A stretch of DNA of 64,000 nt from Escherichia coli (GTDB lineage Bacteria; Pseudomonadota; Gammaproteobacteria; Enterobacterales; Enterobacteriaceae): assembly GCF_030384885.1 (NCBI RefSeq), contig NZ_CP128613.1; one strand, 5' to 3'. The notes below the pieces were generated by a model. The model was given only the letters and a program-made list of their open reading frames with translations. It was not told the DNA's origin and did no database searches. Position numbers and translations under genes: made by a program. Numbering within the stretch: the stretch's first letter is position 1; every line of letters starts with the position of its first letter. Shown one piece after another: positions 3,018 to 64,000 of the stretch.

Positions 3018-3557
3018 ATGAATACAAACGTTTTTCGACTGCTCCTGCTGGGAAGCCTGTTCAGCCTTAGCGCCTGTGTGCAGCAAAGCGAAGTGCGGCA
3101 GATGAAACACAGCGTCAGCACACTGAACCAGGAGATGACGCAACTCAATAAAGAAACGGTCAAAATCACTCAGCAAAACAGGCTGAATGCAAAATCCAGC
3201 AGTGGGGTTTACCTTCTGCCTGGAGCGAAAACACCAGCAAGACTGGAAAGCCAGATCGGTACTTTACGTATGTCGCTGGTGAATATTACGCCTGATACAG
3301 ATGGCACCACCCTGACGCTACGTATTCAGGGCGAGTCGAATGATCCCTTGCCCGCATTCAGCGGAACTGTTGAATATGGGCAAATTCAGGGAACAATAGA
3401 CAACTTTCAGGAAATCAATGTGCAGAATCAATTGATTAACGCCCCTGCCAGCGTCCTCGCCCCCAGCGATGTTGATATTCCGTTACAGTTAAAGGGTATT
3501 TCTGTGGATCAGTTAGGCTTTGTACGTATCCACGACATTCAACCTGTTATGCAGTAA
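3018..3557 (+). CDS. yajI: Lipoprotein YajI
   Basis: 179 aa from ATG 3018; lipoprotein signal MNTNVFRLLLLGSLFSLSAC; track ORF starts 60 nt further upstream. Confidence 0.85.
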   Translation: MNTNVFRLLLLGSLFSLSACVQQSEVRQMKHSVSTLNQEMTQLNKETVKITQQNRLNAKSSSGVYLLPGAKTPARLESQIGTLRMSLVNITPDTDGTTLTLRIQGESNDPLPAFSGTVEYGQIQGTIDNFQEINVQNQLINAPASVLAPSDVDIPLQLKGISVDQLGFVRIHDIQPVMQ

Positions 3558-3728
3558 ACGTATCGCGGGGCGTTTTGTGCGTCCCGCAACATCTTTCCCC
3601 GTCATTTTGTTACTCTGCTTACATCACCCAGATTGATAGTAAAAGTTTGCAACAAGGGTGAAAGTCAGTACAATCCCCGCCCGAATGTGTGTAAACGTGA
3701 ACGCAATCGATTACGTAAATGATAGAAC

Positions 3729-3765
3729 TGTGAAACGAAACATATTTTTGTGAGCAATGATTTTT
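3729..3765 (+). promoter_or_regulatory. Candidate CRP/CytR half-sites in the tsx promoter region
   Basis: Two TGTGA motifs (3729-3733, 3749-3753) about 100 bp upstream of the tsx ATG; tsx is a known CRP/CytR/DeoR target (from memory). Confidence 0.3.
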
Positions 3766-3854
3766 ATAATAGGCTCCTCTGTATACGAAATATTTAGAAA
3801 CGCAATTTGCGCCTTTTTCACTCCCGCAAGGGATTTTCAAACAGTGGCATACAT

Positions 3855-4739
3855 ATGAAAAAAACATTACTGGCAGCCGGTGCGGTACTGGCGCTCTCTT
3901 CGTCTTTTACTGTTAACGCAGCTGAAAACGACAAACCGCAGTATCTTTCCGACTGGTGGCACCAGAGCGTTAACGTTGTCGGAAGCTATCACACCCGTTT
4001 CGGACCGCAGATCCGCAACGATACCTACCTTGAGTACGAAGCATTCGCTAAAAAAGACTGGTTCGACTTCTATGGGTATGCGGATGCGCCGGTATTCTTC
4101 GGCGGTAACTCCGATGCAAAAGGTATCTGGAACCACGGTTCCCCGCTGTTTATGGAAATCGAACCACGTTTCTCCATCGACAAGCTGACCAATACTGACC
4201 TTAGCTTTGGTCCGTTCAAAGAGTGGTACTTCGCGAACAACTACATTTACGACATGGGTCGTAATAAAGATGGTCGCCAGAGCACCTGGTACATGGGTCT
4301 GGGTACCGATATTGATACTGGCCTGCCGATGAGCCTGTCCATGAACGTGTATGCAAAATACCAGTGGCAGAACTATGGCGCAGCGAACGAAAACGAGTGG
4401 GACGGTTACCGTTTCAAAATTAAATACTTTGTGCCGATTACCGATCTGTGGGGTGGTCAGCTGAGCTACATCGGCTTCACCAACTTCGACTGGGGTTCCG
4501 ATTTAGGGGATGACAGCGGTAACGCAATCAACGGTATTAAGACCCGTACCAATAACTCCATCGCTTCCAGCCATATTCTGGCTCTGAACTACGATCACTG
4601 GCACTACTCTGTCGTAGCTCGTTACTGGCACGACGGTGGTCAGTGGAACGACGATGCAGAACTGAACTTCGGCAACGGCAACTTCAACGTTCGCTCTACC
4701 GGCTGGGGTGGCTACCTGGTAGTAGGTTACAACTTCTGA
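3855..4739 (+). CDS. tsx: Nucleoside-specific outer-membrane channel Tsx
   Basis: 294 aa from ATG 3855; [22 protein letters not shown] signal peptide; ends in aromatic ...VGYNF typical of a beta-barrel. Confidence 0.95.
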
Positions 4740-4746
4740 TGAATGA

Positions 4747-4775
4747 AATGCCGGATCTTGTATCCGGCATTTCAG
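4747..4775 (+). terminator. Putative intrinsic terminator downstream of tsx
   Basis: Stem aatgccggat / atccggcatt with 5-nt loop at 4747-4771, followed by a short T-containing tail. Confidence 0.5.
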
Positions 4776-4802
4776 ATTGTTAACAACGTGCGCTTTGTTC
4801 AT

Positions 4803-4900
4803 GCCGGATGCGGCATAAACGCCTTATCCGGCCTACAAAAACACGTAAATTCAATACATTGCTGAGATTACGTAGGCCTGATAAGCGTAGCGCATCAGGC
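4803..4900. repeat. REP/BIME pair
   Basis: gccggatgcggcataaacgccttatccggcctac (4803-4836) and inverted gtaggcctgataagcgtagcgcatcaggc (4872-4900) match the enterobacterial REP consensus. Confidence 0.85.
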
Positions 4901-4956
4901 AATTTTGCGTTTGTCATAAAGCTCAAATAACGGATTTTGTATCCGTCATTTTTTTA

Positions 4957-5304
4957 TCACTTCTTCTTATTCATCATCGCTTTTAAATCAGCGAATGGGT
5001 TGTACTTCGCTTCACCGATATCTTTCTGCGCATCTTCCCCTGCGATAACCGTCGTACCATACTGATCCGCTTCGGTATATTTCGAATGCTCATGATCGTG
5101 GCAATAGAGACACAACAATTCCCAGTTACTGCCATCTTCCGGGTTATTAGTATGGTCGTGATCAATGTGGTGAACAGTAAGTTCACGCAGGTTGGAATAG
5201 ACAAACTCGCGGGAACAGCGACCGCAGACCCACGGATAGAGTTTTAACGCTTTTTCGCGATAGCCGCTTTCTAACCGCGCATAATTTTTTGGGATGATAG
5301 CCAT
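4957..5304 (-). CDS. yajD: HNH-family nuclease-like protein YajD
   Basis: 115-aa ORF with HNH-type motif HHIDHDHTNN...LLCLYCHDHEH; ATG at 5302-5304. Confidence 0.9.
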   Translation of the reverse strand: MAIIPKNYARLESGYREKALKLYPWVCGRCSREFVYSNLRELTVHHIDHDHTNNPEDGSNWELLCLYCHDHEHSKYTEADQYGTTVIAGEDAQKDIGEAKYNPFADLKAMMNKKK

Positions 5305-5433
5305 GAGAAGTTACCTGGATGAAATGTAGGGTTAGGCGCAGTTTCCCAAGATGCGAGGGTTTTCGCAATCACCTTACATCAAAAAAAAATCCCGATCTTC
5401 TGACCGGGATTTTCAACATCAGCTGAAACTTGA

Positions 5434-6405
5434 TTAAGGCAGAATTGACGGCTGATCCGCCCCTTCTTTCTCCACTTTCTGCTGTAACATGTGTTCGCGC
5501 TTCATACCCAGTTTCAGGGCCAGCGCCGATGCTACGTAGATAGAAGATGCAGTACCGATAGTCACACCAATCAGCATGGTCAGCGAGAAGCCTTCCAGTA
5601 CCGGACCACCGAAGAGGTACAGCATCAGGATAACCATCAAGGTAGTACCGGATGTGATCAAGGTACGGTGCAGCGTCTGGGTCAAGGACACGTTAAAGAT
5701 TTCGTAAGGCGTACCGCGACGGATCTTGCGGAAGTTTTCACGAATACGGTCCGAGACCACGATACTGTCGTTAAGCGAGTAACCGATGACCGACATCAGT
5801 GATGCCACAATAGTCAGGTCAATCTCGATATGGAATAACGACAAAATACCCAACGTAATGATCACGTCGTGCGCCAGCGCAATAACGACCCCTGCAGCCA
5901 GTCGCCACTCAAAGCGGAAACCTACATACACGAGGATAGACAGCAGCGCCACCATCAACGCCATCGCACCGGTTTGCGCAAGGTCTGCCCCCACGCTCGG
6001 ACCAACGAATTCAATACGCTTCACTGCCGCATTCTGATTGGTGGATTCGTTAATCACCTTCAGAACCTGGCTGCCCAGCACCTGACCGCCGGTTTCGCCT
6101 TCAGCAGGCGGCATGCGGACCATGATGTCGTGGCTGCTACCAAAGTTTTGCAGCATTGGCTCTTCAAAACCGGCTTTTTGCAATGCATCACGCATTACAT
6201 CAATTTCAGCGGGTTTTTCGAGCGTAATTTCAATAACCGTACCACCGGTGAAATCCAGCCCCCAGTTAAAGCCGCGTACGCCCATTATGACGATAGCGGC
6301 GATCAACAGCAGACCAGAGATGCCAAATGCCCAGTAGTCCCAGCGCATAAAGTCATAGACTTTACGGCCGTGGTTTAGTTGTTCAACAGTATATTCCTGT
6401 GCCAC
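5434..6405 (-). CDS. secF: Protein translocase subunit SecF
   Basis: 323 aa from GTG at 6403-6405 ([16 protein letters not shown]...); the track ORF extends 15 codons upstream into secD. Confidence 0.93.
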
Positions 6406-24627: not shown

Positions 24628-24714
24628 GTCGGATGCGGCGCGAGCGTCTTATCCGACCTACGCGAGCTGCTCATTTTGTAGGCCTGATAAGACGCGGCAA
24701 GCGTCGCATCAGGC
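24628..24714. repeat. REP/BIME pair downstream of araJ
   Basis: gtcggatgcggcgcgagcgtcttatccgacctac and inverted gtaggcctgataagacgcggcaagcgtcgcatcaggc. Confidence 0.85.
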
Positions 24715-26703: not shown

Positions 26704-26740
26704 GCCGGATGCGACGCCTGCGGCGTCTTATCCGGCGTAC
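26704..26740. repeat. REP element between rdgC and the islet
   Basis: gccggatgcgacgcctgcggcgtcttatccggcgtac matches the REP consensus. Confidence 0.8.
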
Positions 26741-39071: not shown

Positions 39072-39128
39072 GAGTAGGTTGCCAGATGCGGCCTAAAATG
39101 CCTTATCTGGCCTGGCGTTCCCTCTTGC

Positions 39129-56535: not shown

Positions 56536-58614
56536 ATGTCACAGACACTTGCACTCCATCCCGCGAAAAAGCGGGATGCGATTTTCCTTTGGGTTTTGCT
56601 GGGCTGGCTGGCATTTATCCTGTTGCCGAGCTGGAGTCTCGATTATGGTCTGCTGGAGTCCACGAGTGATGAGATCCTCGAGGCGTACAGCTGGTCGCAT
56701 TTTAATATCAGCTGGCTGTGGTATTTACTCCCGAGTTTGCTGCTGGTTCGCCCGTTTAATGAGGCCAAACGCGAGCAGCGTAGCCGTCATTATTTTGATG
56801 CAGGCTGGGCATTGCTTTGTATAGCGTTTATGGTCATCAGTGCCACCATCGTTGGCCGCGGTCTAGGCTACGCCGCCATCGTGCTGTTTATCGAATTAAG
56901 CGCGATAATGACGCTGGCCTTAACCCGCCTCGAATGGCTGGGTGGCGACCGCTTTGTGATCGGCTCGCTGATTGCGATTGTGGCGCTGATTGGCATTTTT
57001 ATCGTCTGGCCGAGCATCGCCATTTTTATCCCGATGTTCACCAACGACGCGGGAGGGTTCGCCCCACTGGCGTTTATGAATGTGCTCTCGCAGGCACATA
57101 TTGTTCAGGTGATCGTCAACTCCATCGTCTTATCGATAGCGGTGGGTATTGGCTGTACTTTCTTCGGTCTGGTGCTGGCGATATATACCACGCGCATCGC
57201 TAAACGCAGCGCAGTAATCGGCCGCATCTTTTCCATTCTGCCAATTGTCACGCCACCGTTTGTGGTCGGCTTAGGCGTTACGCTCATGATGGGGCGCTCC
57301 GGCTACATAACGGAATTTATGGTGGAGTGGTTTGGGCTGACCAACACCAACTGGCTGTATGGTTTTACCGGGATCTGGCTGGCACAGGTCCTGGCATTTA
57401 CGCCAATGGCTTTTATGATCCTCGATGGGGCCATTAAAACCATTCATCCCTCGCTGGAAGAAGCCTCCTACACCCTGCGCGCCAGCCGCTGGCAAACCTT
57501 TAACGGTGTGTTTGTGCCGTTGTTAAAGCCCGCGCTTGCCAATGCCTTTTTAATCGTCGTGGTACAGTCACTGGCTGACTTCAGTAACCCGCTGGTGCTT
57601 GGCGGCAACTTCGACGTACTGGCGACGCAAATTTACTTCTACATTACCGGCTCGCAGCTGGATTATCAGGCCGCCAGCACCCTTGGCGCTTTCCTGCTGC
57701 TGTTCTCGCTACTGGTGTTCTGCGTCCAGTATATGTGGATTGGTAAACGCTCTTACGTCACGGTTTCCGGAAAGTCCTACCGCGGCGATGTCCAGCCACT
57801 ACCGGTCACCCTGGTGTGGAGCGTGGTCGCCATACTTGCGATATGGATTGCCTTTAACGCCCTGCTCTATGGCAGCATTTTCTACGGCAGCTTCACCGTG
57901 AACTGGGGCGTAGACTACACCCTAACGCTGGATAACTTTATCAAGTTATTTGGTCAGGGGATGAGCGACGGCGCATGGCCTTCACTGTTAGATACCTTGC
58001 TCTACGCCGGGATTGCCGCACCCATTACCGCTATTTTTGGCCTGCTCATCGCCTGGGTGGTGGTGCGCCAACAATTCAAAGGCAAAAAGACCATCGAGTT
58101 CACCACCATGTTGTGCTTTGCCGTACCGGGTACAGTGGCGGGTGTCTCGTATATTCTTGCCTTTAATAGCGCCCCAGTCTATCTCACCGGAACGGCAGCA
58201 ATTGTGATTATCTCGATGGTGATGCGCAACGTTCCGGTGGGTATTCGCGCCGGGATTGCAGGTCTGGGGCAGATCGACAAATCGCTGGATGAAGCCTCAC
58301 TTAGCCTGCGTGCGGGTTCCCTGCGAACCATTACGCACATTTTACTGCCGTTGTTACGCCCAGCTATTCTCTCGGCCCTGATTTACAGCTTTGTGCGGGC
58401 TATCACGACGGTCAGCGCCATCGTCTTTCTCGTCACGCCGGACACACGCGTGGCAACCGCCTACATCCTTAACCGCGTAGAAGACGGCGAATATGGCGTA
58501 GCCATCGCCTACGGTTCGATTCTGATCGTGGTGATGCTGGCGATTATTTTCCTCTTTGACTGGCTGATCGGTGAAGCACGTATTTCCCGTTCTAAAGCCA
58601 AAAACCAGGCGTAA
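56536..58614 (+). CDS. afuB: ABC transporter fused permease (AfuB/FbpB family)
   Basis: 692 aa from ATG 56536 (track's GTG at 56479 is possible); two tandem permease domains. Confidence 0.85.
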
Positions 58615-58625
58615 TGGAGCGCACT

Positions 58626-59672
58626 ATGAGTCAGAAAAATTTTGTGGAACTGCGCAACGTCACTAAACGATTCGGCAGTAATACGGTTATCGACAATATC
58701 AATCTCACCATCCCACAAGGGCAAATGGTGACGCTGCTCGGTCCTTCCGGATGCGGCAAAACCACCATTCTGCGTCTGGTTGCCGGGCTGGAAAAACCGA
58801 GCGAAGGGCAAATTTTTATAGATGGCGAAGATGTCACGCATCGTTCCATTCAGCAACGCGATATCTGCATGGTGTTTCAGTCATACGCTCTGTTCCCACA
58901 TATGTCGCTGGGCGAAAACGTTGGCTATGGGTTGAAAATGCTTGGCGTGTCGCGTAGTGAAGTGAAGCAGCGGGTGAAAGATGCGCTAGCAATGGTGGAT
59001 CTGGAAGGATTCGAAGACCGCTATGTCGACCAGATTTCCGGTGGTCAGCAACAGCGTGTGGCTCTGGCCCGTGCGTTGATCCTTAAGCCTAAAGTGCTGC
59101 TGTTTGATGAGCCGTTAAGTAACCTCGATGCCAACCTGCGTCGCAGCATGCGCGATAAAATCCGCGAGCTGCAAAAGCAATTTAACATCACTTCGCTCTA
59201 TGTGACTCACGATCAAAGTGAAGCTTTCGCGGTGTCCGACACCGTGTTGGTGATGAATAAAGGTCACATCATGCAAATTGGCTCGCCGCAGGATCTCTAT
59301 CGTCAGCCCGCCTCCCGCTTTATGGCAAGTTTTATGGGCGACGCCAACCTGTTCCCGGCGAACTTTAGCGAAGAGTATGTCGATATCTACGGTTATCGCC
59401 TGCCGCGCGCGGCGCATTTCCCGGCGCAAGGTAGCGGCACCGTCGGCGTTCGCCCGGAAGCCATCACCTTAAGCAATCACGGCGAAGAGAGTCAGCGTTG
59501 TGTTATTCGCCATGTCGCCTACATGGGGCCGCAGTACGAAGTGACCGTAGAATGGCATGGTCAGGAGATTTTATTGCAAGTCAACGCCACCCGTTTACAG
59601 CCCGATATTGGTGAACACTATTACCTCGAAATCCATCCTTACGGGATGTTTGTTTTAGCGGATGCGGCATAA
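58626..59672 (+). CDS. afuC: ABC transporter ATP-binding protein (AfuC/FbpC family)
   Basis: 348 aa from ATG 58626, [16 protein letters not shown]...; Walker [10 protein letters not shown], signature [15 protein letters not shown]. Confidence 0.9.
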
Positions 59673-59754: not shown

Positions 59755-59807
59755 ATATACTATAGGGGGGTATGCATTGACATATGGCATACCCCCCTAT
59801 AGTATAT
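59755..59807 (+). promoter_or_regulatory. frmRAB promoter embedded in a perfect 21-11-21 inverted repeat (candidate FrmR operator)
   Basis: ATATACTATAGGGGGGTATGC - attgacatatg - GCATACCCCCCTATAGTATAT; TTGACA at 59777-59782 in the spacer, TAGTAT 17 bp downstream in the right arm, frmR ATG at 59832. Confidence 0.8.
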
Positions 59808-59831
59808 TGCGTGCAGATGATGAGGTGCGAA

Positions 59832-60107
59832 ATGCCCAGTACTCCGGAAGAGAAGAAAAAGGTCCTTACTCGAGTTCGTCGTATTCGGGGGCAAATTGAT
59901 GCTCTGGAACGGTCGCTGGAGGGTGATGCCGAATGCCGTGCCATACTCCAACAGATCGCTGCCGTTCGGGGCGCGGCTAACGGGCTGATGGCAGAAGTGC
60001 TTGAAAGCCATATCCGGGAAACGTTTGACCGAAATGACTGCTACAGCCGCGAAGTCAGCCAATCCGTTGACGACACTATTGAACTGGTTCGTGCCTATCT
60101 TAAATAG
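59832..60107 (+). CDS. frmR: Formaldehyde-responsive repressor FrmR (RcnR/CsoR family)
   Basis: 91 aa from ATG 59832, [35 protein letters not shown]... Confidence 0.93.
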
Positions 60108-61251: not shown

Positions 61252-61343
61252 TTTCCCGCTGATTTCGCCCCGTCCAGTTCAGACGGGGTTCTCAATACCG
61301 TCCCCGGGCAGCCGTCCGGGGATTAACCATGAGATAATGACTG

Positions 61344-62177
61344 ATGGAACTCATTGAAAAACATGCCAGCTTTGGCGGCTGGCAAAATGTGTATCGGCAT
61401 TATTCCCAATCACTGAAATGTGAAATGAATGTCGGCGTCTATCTCCCACCAAAAGCCGGGAATGAAAAATTGCCGGTACTGTACTGGCTTTCGGGCCTGA
61501 CCTGTAACGAGCAGAATTTCATTACTAAATCGGGGATGCAACGTTACGCGGCTGAGCACAACATTATTGTTGTTGCGCCAGACACCAGTCCGCGAGGCAG
61601 TCATGTCGCAGATGCCGACCGTTACGATCTCGGGCAAGGTGCCGGGTTTTACCTGAACGCAACGCAAGCGCCGTGGAATGAACATTACAAAATGTATGAT
61701 TATATCCACAACGAGTTGCCGGATTTAGTGATGCAACATTTTCCGGCAACGACCAGAAAGTCTATCTCAGGTCATTCTATGGGCGGGCTGGGCGCGCTGG
61801 TGCTGGCGTTACGTAACCCAGATGAATATGTCAGCGTCTCGGCGTTTTCGCCCATTGTCTCCCCATCGCAAGTACCGTGGGGACAGCAAGCCTTTGCCGC
61901 ATATCTTGGTGAAAATAAAGATGCCTGGTTGGATTACGATCCGGTTAGCCTTATTTCACAAGGTCAACGCGTTGCGGAAATCATGGTTGATCAAGGATTG
62001 AGTGATGATTTTTACGCAGAACAGCTGCGGACTCCAAATCTTGAAAAGATCTGCCAGGAGATGAATATCAAAACGTTAATCCGTTATCACGAGGGTTATG
62101 ATCACAGCTATTATTTTGTCTCCAGTTTTATTGGCGAGCATATTGCCTACCACGCCAATAAACTGAATATGCGTTGA
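61344..62177 (+). CDS. frmB: S-formylglutathione hydrolase
   Basis: 277-aa ORF with esterase motif GHSMGG. Confidence 0.94.
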   Translation: MELIEKHASFGGWQNVYRHYSQSLKCEMNVGVYLPPKAGNEKLPVLYWLSGLTCNEQNFITKSGMQRYAAEHNIIVVAPDTSPRGSHVADADRYDLGQGAGFYLNATQAPWNEHYKMYDYIHNELPDLVMQHFPATTRKSISGHSMGGLGALVLALRNPDEYVSVSAFSPIVSPSQVPWGQQAFAAYLGENKDAWLDYDPVSLISQGQRVAEIMVDQGLSDDFYAEQLRTPNLEKICQEMNIKTLIRYHEGYDHSYYFVSSFIGEHIAYHANKLNMR

Positions 62178-62187
62178 GCATCCGCGC

Positions 62188-62392
62188 ACGCCAGCCGGAT
62201 GCGGCGTGAACGCCTTATCCGCCTACATTTCGCCCATAAACCGTAGGCATGATAAGACGCGCATAGCGTCGCATCAGGCATCTGCGCACAACTGCCGGAT
62301 GCGGCGTGAACGCCTTATCCGGCCTACATTTCGCCCATGAGCCGTAGGCATGATAAGACGCGCAAAGCATCGCATCAGGCATCTGTGCACGG
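62188..62392. repeat. Tandem BIME cluster (two ~100-bp units of paired REP elements)
   Basis: Unit starting 62194 (gccggatgcggcgtgaacgccttatccgcctac...gtaggcatgataagacgcgcatagcgtcgcatcaggc) is repeated from 62294 with a few substitutions. Confidence 0.85.
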
Positions 62393-62403
62393 CTTATCGA
62401 TGA

Positions 62404-62943
62404 TTACCACATCAAATCATCAGGCACTTTAAAGTCGGCATACGGATCGTCTTCATCCTGCTCTTCGGCGCTGAGCGCGCTGTGCAACACAATACTGCTG
62501 GCGTCACGCTGAGCAATTTTATCGGCAACGCTGGCGGGAATAATGGCGTATTCACCTTCGCTATTGTTATCGATCTGCAAACGTGCAATCGCCAGACGAC
62601 CATTAATCAACTGCGTTTGCGTGAGCTTATCGACAAAAATCTTCTTAATCAGATTGCCATCGGTAAAGTTAAAACCGATATCGCCATTGGCAATGGTGAT
62701 CCGGTTCATTTCAATAAGCTGCTTCACCTGAGCTTTATATTCTTTCGCCAGTGCCGCTTGTTTTTGCTGCTCGCTAAGCTGTTTATCACGCTCAAGCTGT
62801 GCCTTTTTATTTTCTTCTACCGCCGCCCGAGCCTCACGCGCCTGAACGCGCGATTTTTTCGCCGTTCTCTCGACCTTCGCCGCTTTTTTGCTGGTGACTA
62901 ATCCTGCTTTGAGCAACTGCTCTTGTAAGGTAAGTTTTGCCAT
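62404..62943 (-). CDS. yaiL: Uncharacterised protein YaiL
   Basis: 179 aa from ATG 62941-62943, MAKLTLQEQLLKAGLVTSKKAAKVERTAKK...; Lys/Glu-rich N-terminal half. Confidence 0.85.
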   Translation of the reverse strand: MAKLTLQEQLLKAGLVTSKKAAKVERTAKKSRVQAREARAAVEENKKAQLERDKQLSEQQKQAALAKEYKAQVKQLIEMNRITIANGDIGFNFTDGNLIKKIFVDKLTQTQLINGRLAIARLQIDNNSEGEYAIIPASVADKIAQRDASSIVLHSALSAEEQDEDDPYADFKVPDDLMW

Positions 62944-63044
62944 CTTTGTTTCCAAACCCGCTGAATAATTTTTAGCGAGTATACCTGTAAACGCCGTAGG
63001 TGTATTGGGGGCAAGTCCCTTTCGCCCCTACCTAATAAGGCGCG

Positions 63045-64000
63045 TCAGGCATCGGCGCACGGCTGCATTCGTGATCTCCGGCTCATCAAAATAAACACTG
63101 CCAGGCCAGCAACAAAAATACCCGGCGCTGAAGCGGCCATTACGCCAACCGTGCCAGTACCTAATGCCAGCATTTTCCCGGCCAGTAACGGACCGCTCAT
63201 AGCCCCCAGACGCCCTACCGCCACGGCGGTTCCCACGCCGGTTGCGCGGATCTGCGAACTGTAAAACAACGGAGCCAATGCATACAAAACGCTTTGCCCA
63301 CCTGTTGCAAACAACCCTGCGACGAATCCCGCCAGCAACATACCGTTAAATGATGACACTGTTCCCAGCGCTAACAGCGAAGCTAACATACCGCTATAAA
63401 TCAGTAGCGACATGATCATTGGACGCAGTTTATCCATCAGTGCGCCCAATATTAACGTCCCGCTTGCCGCCCCCATTTGTAGTGCAAACATCACCCCTGC
63501 CGCCTGCGATGGCTGGAATCCTTGTTCCACTAAAAGCAGCGGTAGCCAGTTGATCAACATGTAGACCACCAGCAAAGTGAAGAAATAACACAACCACAGC
63601 AGCAGCGTTGCGGTTGCCGTGTCGGGCGCAAATAACGCACGCAGCGGCGGCGCAGCCTGTTTTTCGCCAGCGAACACCGCCGACTCCGGCAGCCAGCGCA
63701 TTAACAGTGGCACCAGAATCAACGGCACCACACCACCTACCCAAAACACCGTTTGCCAGGCTAAGTTTGCCCCTGCAAAACCCAGTGTCGCCGCCAGCGC
63801 CGCGCCAATGGGAACCCCGCAATACATCAGGCTCACCGCCGTTCCACGAAAACGTGGCCCCGCCGCTTCAGACGTCAGGGCGATAAGATTCGGCAACGCC
63901 GCCCCCAGCCCGACACCGGTCATCAGCCGCGCAAAGACCAGTGAGGGGAAATCCCAGGCAATAGCCGTTGCCAGCGAGAACAAACCAAACAGCGCAACTG
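63045..64000 (-). CDS. mhpT: MFS transporter, C-terminal part (likely 3-hydroxyphenylpropionate transporter; start lies beyond the window end)
   Basis: Open minus-strand frame runs from the stop at 63045 to the window edge; polytopic membrane sequence; position next to yaiL matches mhpT. Confidence 0.75.
   Translation of the reverse strand, partial: VALFGLFSLATAIAWDFPSLVFARLMTGVGLGAALPNLIALTSEAAGPRFRGTAVSLMYCGVPIGAALAATLGFAGANLAWQTVFWVGGVVPLILVPLLMRWLPESAVFAGEKQAAPPLRALFAPDTATATLLLWLCYFFTLLVVYMLINWLPLLLVEQGFQPSQAAGVMFALQMGAASGTLILGALMDKLRPMIMSLLIYSGMLASLLALGTVSSFNGMLLAGFVAGLFATGGQSVLYALAPLFYSSQIRATGVGTAVAVGRLGAMSGPLLAGKMLALGTGTVGVMAASAPGIFVAGLAVFILMSRRSRMQPCADA

Follow-up and report, generated by a model that had tools for sequence, protein, structure and literature searches.

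In the nomenclature of Gilson, Bachellier and Hofnung, BIME-2 is a family of the REP clusters of Escherichia coli. Members of this family are built of Z2 and Y REPs, occur in tandem copies, contain a short S linker and are flanked by the motifs s, l and r, and both their copy number and their linkers vary between strains at a given locus (PMC3333891). BIME-1 elements, in contrast, combine a Y with a Z1 REP, are single-copy and harbor a long L linker with an IHF site, and it is to them that IHF binding belongs (PMC3333891). REP325, a BIME-2 array of six units of which naRNA4 represents one Y-linker-Z2 module (PMC4550694), was reported to terminate transcription in a partly Rho-dependent manner and to stabilize mRNA (bioRxiv 10.64898/2026.03.23.713779). 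According to the same preprint, the presence of REPs between convergent genes is associated with increased expression of both, and 78 REPs fall within mapped bidirectional terminators; genes flanked by REPs do not have longer half-lives genome-wide, the effects of REPs being context-dependent. At the DNA level, BIME-2 elements are enriched in gyrase cleavage sites, which favor Y REPs, and cleavage persists and strengthens when transcription is blocked; only a subset of BIME-2 elements carries such sites (PMC6379681). BIME-2 elements further lie mostly at the borders of supercoiling regions (PMC10592627).

Here, we describe the repeat that separates the convergent genes frmB and yaiL in a 64,000-nt stretch of E. 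coli DNA (contig NZ_CP128613.1), hereafter referred to as the window. The starting point was an original prediction that two tandem BIME units, potentially bound by IHF and DNA gyrase and stabilizing the adjacent transcripts, occupy this gap. No discussion of the locus was found in the literature searched.

Results

A tandem repeat fills the gap between frmB and yaiL

The last gene of frmRAB, frmB (fghA in RefSeq), encodes S-formylglutathione hydrolase on the + strand of the window (61344-62177; stop codon TGA at 62175-62177). It converges with yaiL, encoding a DUF2058 protein on the - strand (62404-62943; stop codon TAA at 62404-62406). Both genes were delineated as ORFs and named from the annotation of K-12 and of the 100%-identical RefSeq record NZ_CP027579 (E. 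coli 2013C-4282), fghA being the frmB of K-12; this annotation bears out the gene names and the convergent arrangement originally proposed. Of the 226 bp that lie between the two genes (62178-62403), 94% are covered by a single array identified by Tandem Repeats Finder at 62178-62390, with a period of 101, 2.1 copies, 91% matches, no scored indels and a score of 354. A direct-repeat search returned two in-register families, one of 69 nt (93%) spaced by 101 and the other of 44 nt (91%) spaced by 100, a difference indicative of a 1-nt indel between the units. Upon global alignment, unit 1 (62194-62293, 100 nt) and unit 2 (62294-62394, 101 nt) were found to be 92.1% identical, with seven substitutions and one 1-nt gap over 101 columns, a likeness far beyond chance. 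Tandem Repeats Finder, the direct repeats and the alignment suggested for this purpose in the original prediction thus all point to a unit of ~100 bp present twice in tandem with, as had been claimed, few substitutions. The boundaries proposed for the repeat, 62188 and 62392, fell some 10 nt short on the left, where the repeat begins at 62178, just after the frmB stop codon. ORFs of 31-55 aa read through the array, none of which is annotated in the RefSeq record; they are non-coding artefacts of the repeat.

Two direct repeats with internal dyad symmetry could also be taken for a minimal CRISPR-like or other spacer-bearing array. The units abut, however, leaving no unique spacers; the REPs of which they consist are scattered across the genome, E. 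coli genomes having a median of 36 places that match; and the neighbors are frmRAB, yaiL and mhpT, with no cas genes. The original prediction had already set this identity aside on account of the missing spacers, and we give it practically no credence. The 222-bp RRS repeats (PMC10592627), considered because of their similar size, are G-quadruplex elements located 650 kb from dif and not REP arrays.

Two other features of this neighborhood were recorded. The last codons and the stop codon (63045-63047) of mhpT, on the - strand, lie within a decayed REP remnant at 63024-63075, TCAGGCATCGGCGCACGGCTGC, which matches the Z2 tail and the inter-unit linker of the frmB/yaiL array. The C-terminus of MhpT (...MQPCADA before the stop) resembles that of a spurious ORF running across the BIME (...QLCADA before the stop), and the coding 3' end of mhpT seems to have incorporated a piece of a REP. 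On the other side, the gene content directly upstream of the frm operon differs between the window and K-12: frmR is preceded by fbpC, encoding a ferric ABC transporter ATPase, in the window (58614-59672, 59784-60107), and by yaiO in K-12.

Anatomy of the array

The array was searched by blastn-short with the three E. coli REP consensus sequences, Y, Z1 and Z2, quoted in PMC11208160. Four REP hairpins were found in the orientations Y(+), Z2(-), Y(+) and Z2(-), for an overall layout of (s)-Y-S-Z2-(s)-Y-S-Z2-(s). The left flank, GCATCCGCGCACGCCA (62178-62193), is related to the inter-unit linker and in register with 62278-62293; its inclusion in the Tandem Repeats Finder array accounts for the extra 0.1 copy. 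The first Y REP (62194-62226, + strand) matches the Y consensus over 28/28 positions and then displays a 1-nt deletion (TTATCCG-CCTAC). It is followed by a 16-nt short linker, ATTTCGCCCATAAACC (62227-62242), placed between CTAC and GTAG ends in the position of an S linker, and by the first Z2 REP (62243-62279, - strand), which reads GCCTGATGCGACGCTATGCGCGTCTTATCATGCCTAC on the - strand and is 94.6% identical to Z2 over 37 nt. A 14-nt inter-unit linker, ATCTGCGCACAACT (62280-62293), with relatives on both flanks of the array, leads to the second Y REP (62294-62327, + strand), an exact copy of the consensus (34/34). The second unit continues with a 16-nt short linker between its Y and Z2 REPs, ATTTCGCCCATGAGCC (62328-62343), and ends with a slightly decayed Z2 REP (62344-62380, - strand; 91.9% over 37 nt). 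In the right flank (62381-62403), the linker motif occurs again as ATCTGTGCACGGCT, after which 9 nt of unique sequence lead to the stop codon of yaiL. A 14-nt motif, ATCTGCGCACnnCT, a candidate for the s, l or r type and denoted (s) in the layout above, recurs between the units and on both flanks, and the CTAC and GTAG ends of each REP pair face each other across a 16-nt linker. The Z1 consensus matched the REPs of the array only over a 14-nt tail that is common to all Z REPs. Ungapped searching with the Z2 pattern yielded no match because the loop length is off by one base; both Z2 copies were retrieved by gapped search. Each unit thus contains two REPs in opposite orientation, the convergent REP pair that had been predicted, and the interpretation of the repeat as two tandem BIME units is upheld by these Y/Z2 pairs.

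Assignment to BIME-2

Judged by its sequence, the array is a canonical BIME-2 of the E. coli REP elements, and this identity may be regarded as effectively settled. The assignment relies on the Y matches (34/34 and 28/28), the two 37-nt Z2 matches (92-95%), the alternating orientation of the REPs and their tandem copies. In common with BIME-2, the array alternates Y and Z2 REPs, has a short linker and a recurring motif, lies in a 3' extragenic gap, and is found in tandem and in numbers that vary between strains. The S linker was recognized by its length, 16 nt as compared to 35 nt in a BIME-1-like element located at 4803-4900 of the window, linkers being judged by length and recurrence and not by sequence; the linker of the other Y/Z2 pair of the window also measures 16 nt. 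That pair, Y-like/Z2, belongs with two solitary degenerate REP-like palindromes to the REPs found at 24628-24714, 26704-26740 and 39085-39115, and the sequence of its linker is unrelated to those of the array. The orthologous two-unit array of K-12 MG1655, between yaiL and frmB at 377312-377534, differs in nothing essential from that of the window. Each unit of the array is likewise an inverted REP doublet with a short spacer, as are REPINs, the proposed mobile form mobilized by RAYT/TnpA(REP) (PMC3333891).

The original prediction listed IHF among the proteins that tandem BIMEs bind. An IHF-binding BIME-1 (RIB/RIP) element would share with the array a Y REP and an inverted Z-type REP in a 3' extragenic gap, and the case for it comes down to the general statement that some BIMEs bind IHF (PMC3333891). 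BIME-1 differs from the array, however, by its Z1 REP, its long conserved L linker with an IHF site and its single copy; the array has no Z1 REP, its linkers are 16 nt in length, and it is tandem. Moreover, the IHF consensus WATCAANNNNTTR was absent from 62178-62403, whether zero or up to one mismatch was allowed. A true BIME-1-like element is available for comparison at 4803-4900, where a Y REP with two mismatches (4803-4836), a 35-nt linker and an exact inverted Z1 REP (4872-4900) succeed one another; by eye, its linker holds ATTCAATACATTG, one mismatch away from the IHF consensus. IHF binding being a property of BIME-1, this part of the prediction does not apply to the array, and a BIME-1 identity is extremely improbable.

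RNA folding and termination

As RNA, the single REPs of the array are predicted to fold at -9.4 to -21.3 kcal/mol. The strongest hairpin is that of Y copy 2 (-21.3 kcal/mol, z = -5.65), the corresponding values being -15.7 (+ strand) and -18.5 kcal/mol (- strand) for Y copy 1, and -14.7 to -15.2 kcal/mol for Z2 copy 1. Z2 copy 2 yields a weak hairpin in the frmB sense (+ strand; -9.4 kcal/mol, z = -0.13), whereas in the yaiL sense (- strand) a substitution gives a G-U pair and the hairpin is stronger (-12.9 kcal/mol). Folded together, neighboring REPs give composite hairpins (-40 to -45 kcal/mol; z between -3.8 and -4.9) whose stability exceeds that of the two single hairpins combined. The entire gap folds at -100.9 (+ strand) and -115.2 kcal/mol (- strand), with z of about -4, such that either transcript entering it would be expected to end in a very stable structure. 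No intrinsic terminator, consisting of a hairpin and a T-run, was detected on either strand of 62178-62403; devoid of a U-tract and of any terminator-like site in the gap, the array was rejected as a Rho-independent terminator.

Elsewhere in the operon, the spacer between frmA and frmB (61252-61343) contains two strong GC-rich hairpins (CCCCGTC...GACGGGG and TCCCCGG...CCGGGGA), with an RNA minimum free energy of -38.5 kcal/mol (z = -4.0). They are not REP-like. Both are kept in K-12, where small indels and substitutions affect the stems and their surroundings, and they may represent an intra-operon processing or stability element.

A match to the naRNA4 family

The sole Rfam match above the gathering threshold in the 64-kb window falls within the array. 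It corresponds to RF02564 (naRNA4; 62246-62324, - strand), spans the full model (1-77), scores 75.8 bits against a gathering threshold of 59.5, and consists of the inverted Y copy 2, the 14-nt linker and Z2 copy 1. The + strand of this nearly palindromic segment also scores, at 51.7 bits. Since the naRNA4 family is itself a Y-linker-Z2 segment of BIME-2, the match is informative of sequence class and not of function; at that level it independently confirms the Y/Z2 assignment, and it does not establish an sRNA gene. REP325 (12 hairpins, between yjdM and yjdN) and the frmB-yaiL array share the same two-hairpin Y-linker-Z2 module and are both located in 3' UTRs; they differ in that REP325 has six units between tandem genes within an operon and the array two units between convergent genes.

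By analogy, a naRNA4-like RNA might be processed out of transcripts that read through from yaiL, associate with HU and help to bridge cruciform DNA so as to condense the chromosome. The match lies on the yaiL-sense strand, and in the original model any two-hairpin RNA made of Y and Z2 can act together with HU (PMC4550694). Set against this are the score of the opposite strand, the nature of the Rfam family and a 2026 preprint sharing an author with the original work, in which REP325/naRNA4 caused no measurable nucleoid compaction, no stable ternary complex of HU, cruciform DNA and naRNA4 was formed, and no REP-REP long-range contacts were seen (bioRxiv 10.64898/2026.03.23.713779). Such a role for the array thus appears very unlikely.

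One- and two-unit alleles among E. coli strains

The original prediction called for a comparison of copy number at this site across strains. Using a query in which 200 bp of frmB and 200 bp of yaiL were fused directly, omitting the repeat, and retaining matches at even steps of the ranking, we collected 58 full-length alleles from complete E. coli genomes. Two units (gap of 223-226 bp) were present in 25/58 genomes and one unit (gap of 124-125 bp) in the other 33; none of the 58 had zero or at least three units, which places the frequency of such alleles under about 5%. K-12 and W carry two units, the sampled O157:H7, O145:H28 and O111 strains carry one, and JJ1886 has a shorter span corresponding to one unit. 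As more than half of the sampled strains have a single unit, the second is evidently dispensable.

The alleles are mosaic. Unit 1 of the window most resembles the second unit of K-12 and W (95-96%), and unit 2 of the window lacks a close relative among the alleles compared (93% at most). One-unit alleles combine features of either unit of two-unit alleles, the center of the 16-nt linker being the part that varies most between strains. This mosaicism fits the copy-number and linker variability published for BIME-2 (PMC3333891). Compared to the common form, the window allele has GCATCCGCGCACGCCA instead of TAATAGTGCACGACT as its left flank, the 1-nt deletion in Y copy 1 mentioned above, and a C replaced by A in the stems of its two Z2 REPs (GTAGGCATGA), traits that are common to a minority of strains. 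The segment between the frmB stop codon and the first REP (13-16 nt) differs by allele: the window shares GCATCCGCGCACGCCA with O84:H7 Trh52, K-12 has TAATAGCACGACT, and most strains have TAATAGTGCACGACT, which provides two additional in-frame stops (TAA TAG) after the TGA. Only 13 of 5471 matching records were at least 99% identical to the window over 61900-62700, indicating that the window derives from a minority lineage. A search of a plasmid collection yielded matches solely to chromosome-sized or chromosome-derived E. coli records.

Insertions, disruptions and other species

In two of the sampled strains, the locus is disrupted. In NZ_CP062865, a 1279-bp copy (4270-5548) of IS621, a bridge-RNA recombinase element of the IS110 family, is inserted within the Z2 REP of unit 1, between GTAG and GCCTGAT. 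This site is the published natural target of IS621, ATCAGGCCTAC (PMC11208160). Both Z2 REPs of the window read ATCATGCCTAC, one mismatch away from the target, and the Y REPs read ATCCGGCCTAC and ATCCGCCTAC. In NZ_CP116094 (strain DETEC-S560; 3055-4000), an IS1 adjoins the 3' end of yaiL, frmRAB is gone and tauABCD is now the neighbor, an arrangement suggestive of an IS1-associated deletion with an endpoint at or close to the BIME.

Other species were scanned with the conserved 3' end of yaiL, one genome being considered per species; E. fergusonii and Shigella were not recovered by this procedure. Among the loci inspected, the convergence of frmB with yaiL is kept in E. albertii only. Enterobacter, Citrobacter, Leclercia, Superficieibacter and more distant genera showed other neighbors, and no E. 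coli-type REP was present at the loci inspected. In E. albertii NBRC 107761, the gap measures 105 nt and harbors a single BIME made of a chimeric Y-like REP, a 10-nt linker and a Z1 REP, and the frmB-side flank, TAATAGCGCACGACC, shares homology with the one common in E. coli. Given the presence of a BIME in the gap of both species, the site has probably been BIME-occupied since before the split of E. coli and E. albertii, its content turning over since then.

These comparisons bear on the possibility that the array is selfish or neutral, consisting of REPIN-like Y-S-Z2 doublets amplified by TnpA(REP)/RAYT in a gap that tolerates insertions and serving no host function. Alleles of one or two copies that are mosaic in different lineages, the hypervariable linker cores, the decay of one Z2 copy and the different REP composition at the same site in E. 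albertii (Y-like/Z1 with a 10-nt linker) are all in line with such an origin, as is the finding that TnpA(REP) cleaves and recombines BIMEs in vitro, on the basis of which it was proposed to drive their amplification (PMC3333891). On the other hand, a BIME occupies every full-length allele (0/58 being empty) as well as the E. albertii gap, REP stems are far better conserved than linkers, and effects of the class on termination and expression have been published (bioRxiv 10.64898/2026.03.23.713779). Moreover, a selfish origin is compatible with a host function acquired later. As an account of the array as a whole, this reading is possible but the weaker one; as an explanation for why there are two copies, it is a serious rival.

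Discussion

We consider it highly probable that the whole of the frmB-yaiL repeat is explained by a canonical BIME-2 array that combines a two-way block at RNA 3' ends, a gyrase site and a copy number subject to recombination. Our analysis bears directly on the class of the array, its anatomy, its potential for structure and its one-or-two-copy polymorphism; the mechanism proposed below is one that we infer from the class. In the same manner, the gyrase and transcript-stabilizer roles put forward in the original prediction represent reasonable expectations for a BIME-2.

The best-supported mechanism is, in our analysis, that of a two-way 3'-UTR element. Both converging transcripts would run into the array, where their 3' ends would fold as REP hairpins or as longer Y:Z2 composite hairpins. 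These hairpins may then block 3'-to-5' exonucleases and thereby protect the frmB and yaiL transcripts. In addition, given that the gap lacks an intrinsic terminator, we propose that the array could act as a partial, Rho-assisted, bidirectional terminator for frmRAB and yaiL. Copy number would be expected to shift when the 101-bp units undergo unequal recombination or slippage, or through TnpA(REP) activity.

A second, plausible role is the action of gyrase between the converging transcription units. On DNA, the Y REPs may serve as preferred gyrase cleavage sites, and the array could absorb the positive supercoils that build up between the two units. Carried further, the main role of the array might lie at the DNA level, as a transcription-independent gyrase site or topological insulator, the RNA hairpins being incidental. 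The presence of two Y REPs, one of which is an exact consensus, would suit such a role, as would the preference of gyrase sites for the Y REPs of BIME-2, their strengthening when transcription is blocked (PMC6379681) and the location of BIME-2 at supercoiling-region borders (PMC10592627). Yet cleavage sites are found on only a subset of BIME-2 elements, and the text of the Topo-seq supplement contains no entry naming frmB or yaiL (PMC6379681). We hold this DNA-level reading to be rather doubtful as the main role of the array, and retain the 3'-UTR element, with gyrase action as its plausible complement, as our working model. In the supplement to the REP preprint, yaiL appears in just one, unrelated, differential-expression row (bioRxiv 10.64898/2026.03.23.713779).

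The distance between stop codon and REP adds a further consideration. Liang, Rudd and Deutscher (2015), as far as they are quoted in PMC12306157, described REPs that lower translation of the upstream gene, the REP-induced ribosome stalling having a stop-to-REP threshold of less than 16 nt. On the frmB side, 16 nt separate the stop codon from the first base of the Y consensus in the window, or 15 nt if an extra predicted A-U pair is counted; the distance is 13 nt in K-12 and 15 nt in most strains, values that are borderline with respect to this rule. On the yaiL side it is 23 nt, beyond the threshold.

Overall, the frmB-yaiL array is ordinary and of an already described kind, with nothing new in kind: REP/BIME-2 arrays, their copy-number polymorphism, their link to gyrase, their roles as terminators and stabilizers and their targeting by IS621 are all in the literature (PMC3333891, PMC6379681, PMC11208160, bioRxiv 10.64898/2026.03.23.713779). 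For annotation purposes, the repeat should be labeled REP/BIME-2, and not a CRISPR-like array, a small-RNA gene or a source of small ORFs; past this correct annotation, it matters little. The locus does offer a natural series for the study of REP arrays between convergent genes, comprising one unit, two units, an IS621-interrupted array and the Y-like/Z1 element of E. albertii, with stop-to-REP spacings that bracket the threshold reported for translation. It is conceivable, if unlikely, that the alleles of the array (one or two units, and 13, 15 or 16 nt between stop codon and REP) function as a lineage-specific dial of frmB translation and mRNA stability and of the yaiL 3' end, and that the G-to-T change in the Z2 REPs of the window (ATCATGCCTAC) may also remove the preferred bridge-RNA target that IS621 has at this site in other strains. 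Considering that frmB serves in formaldehyde detoxification, such a dial, if true, would set the expression of this function differently from one E. coli lineage to the next.
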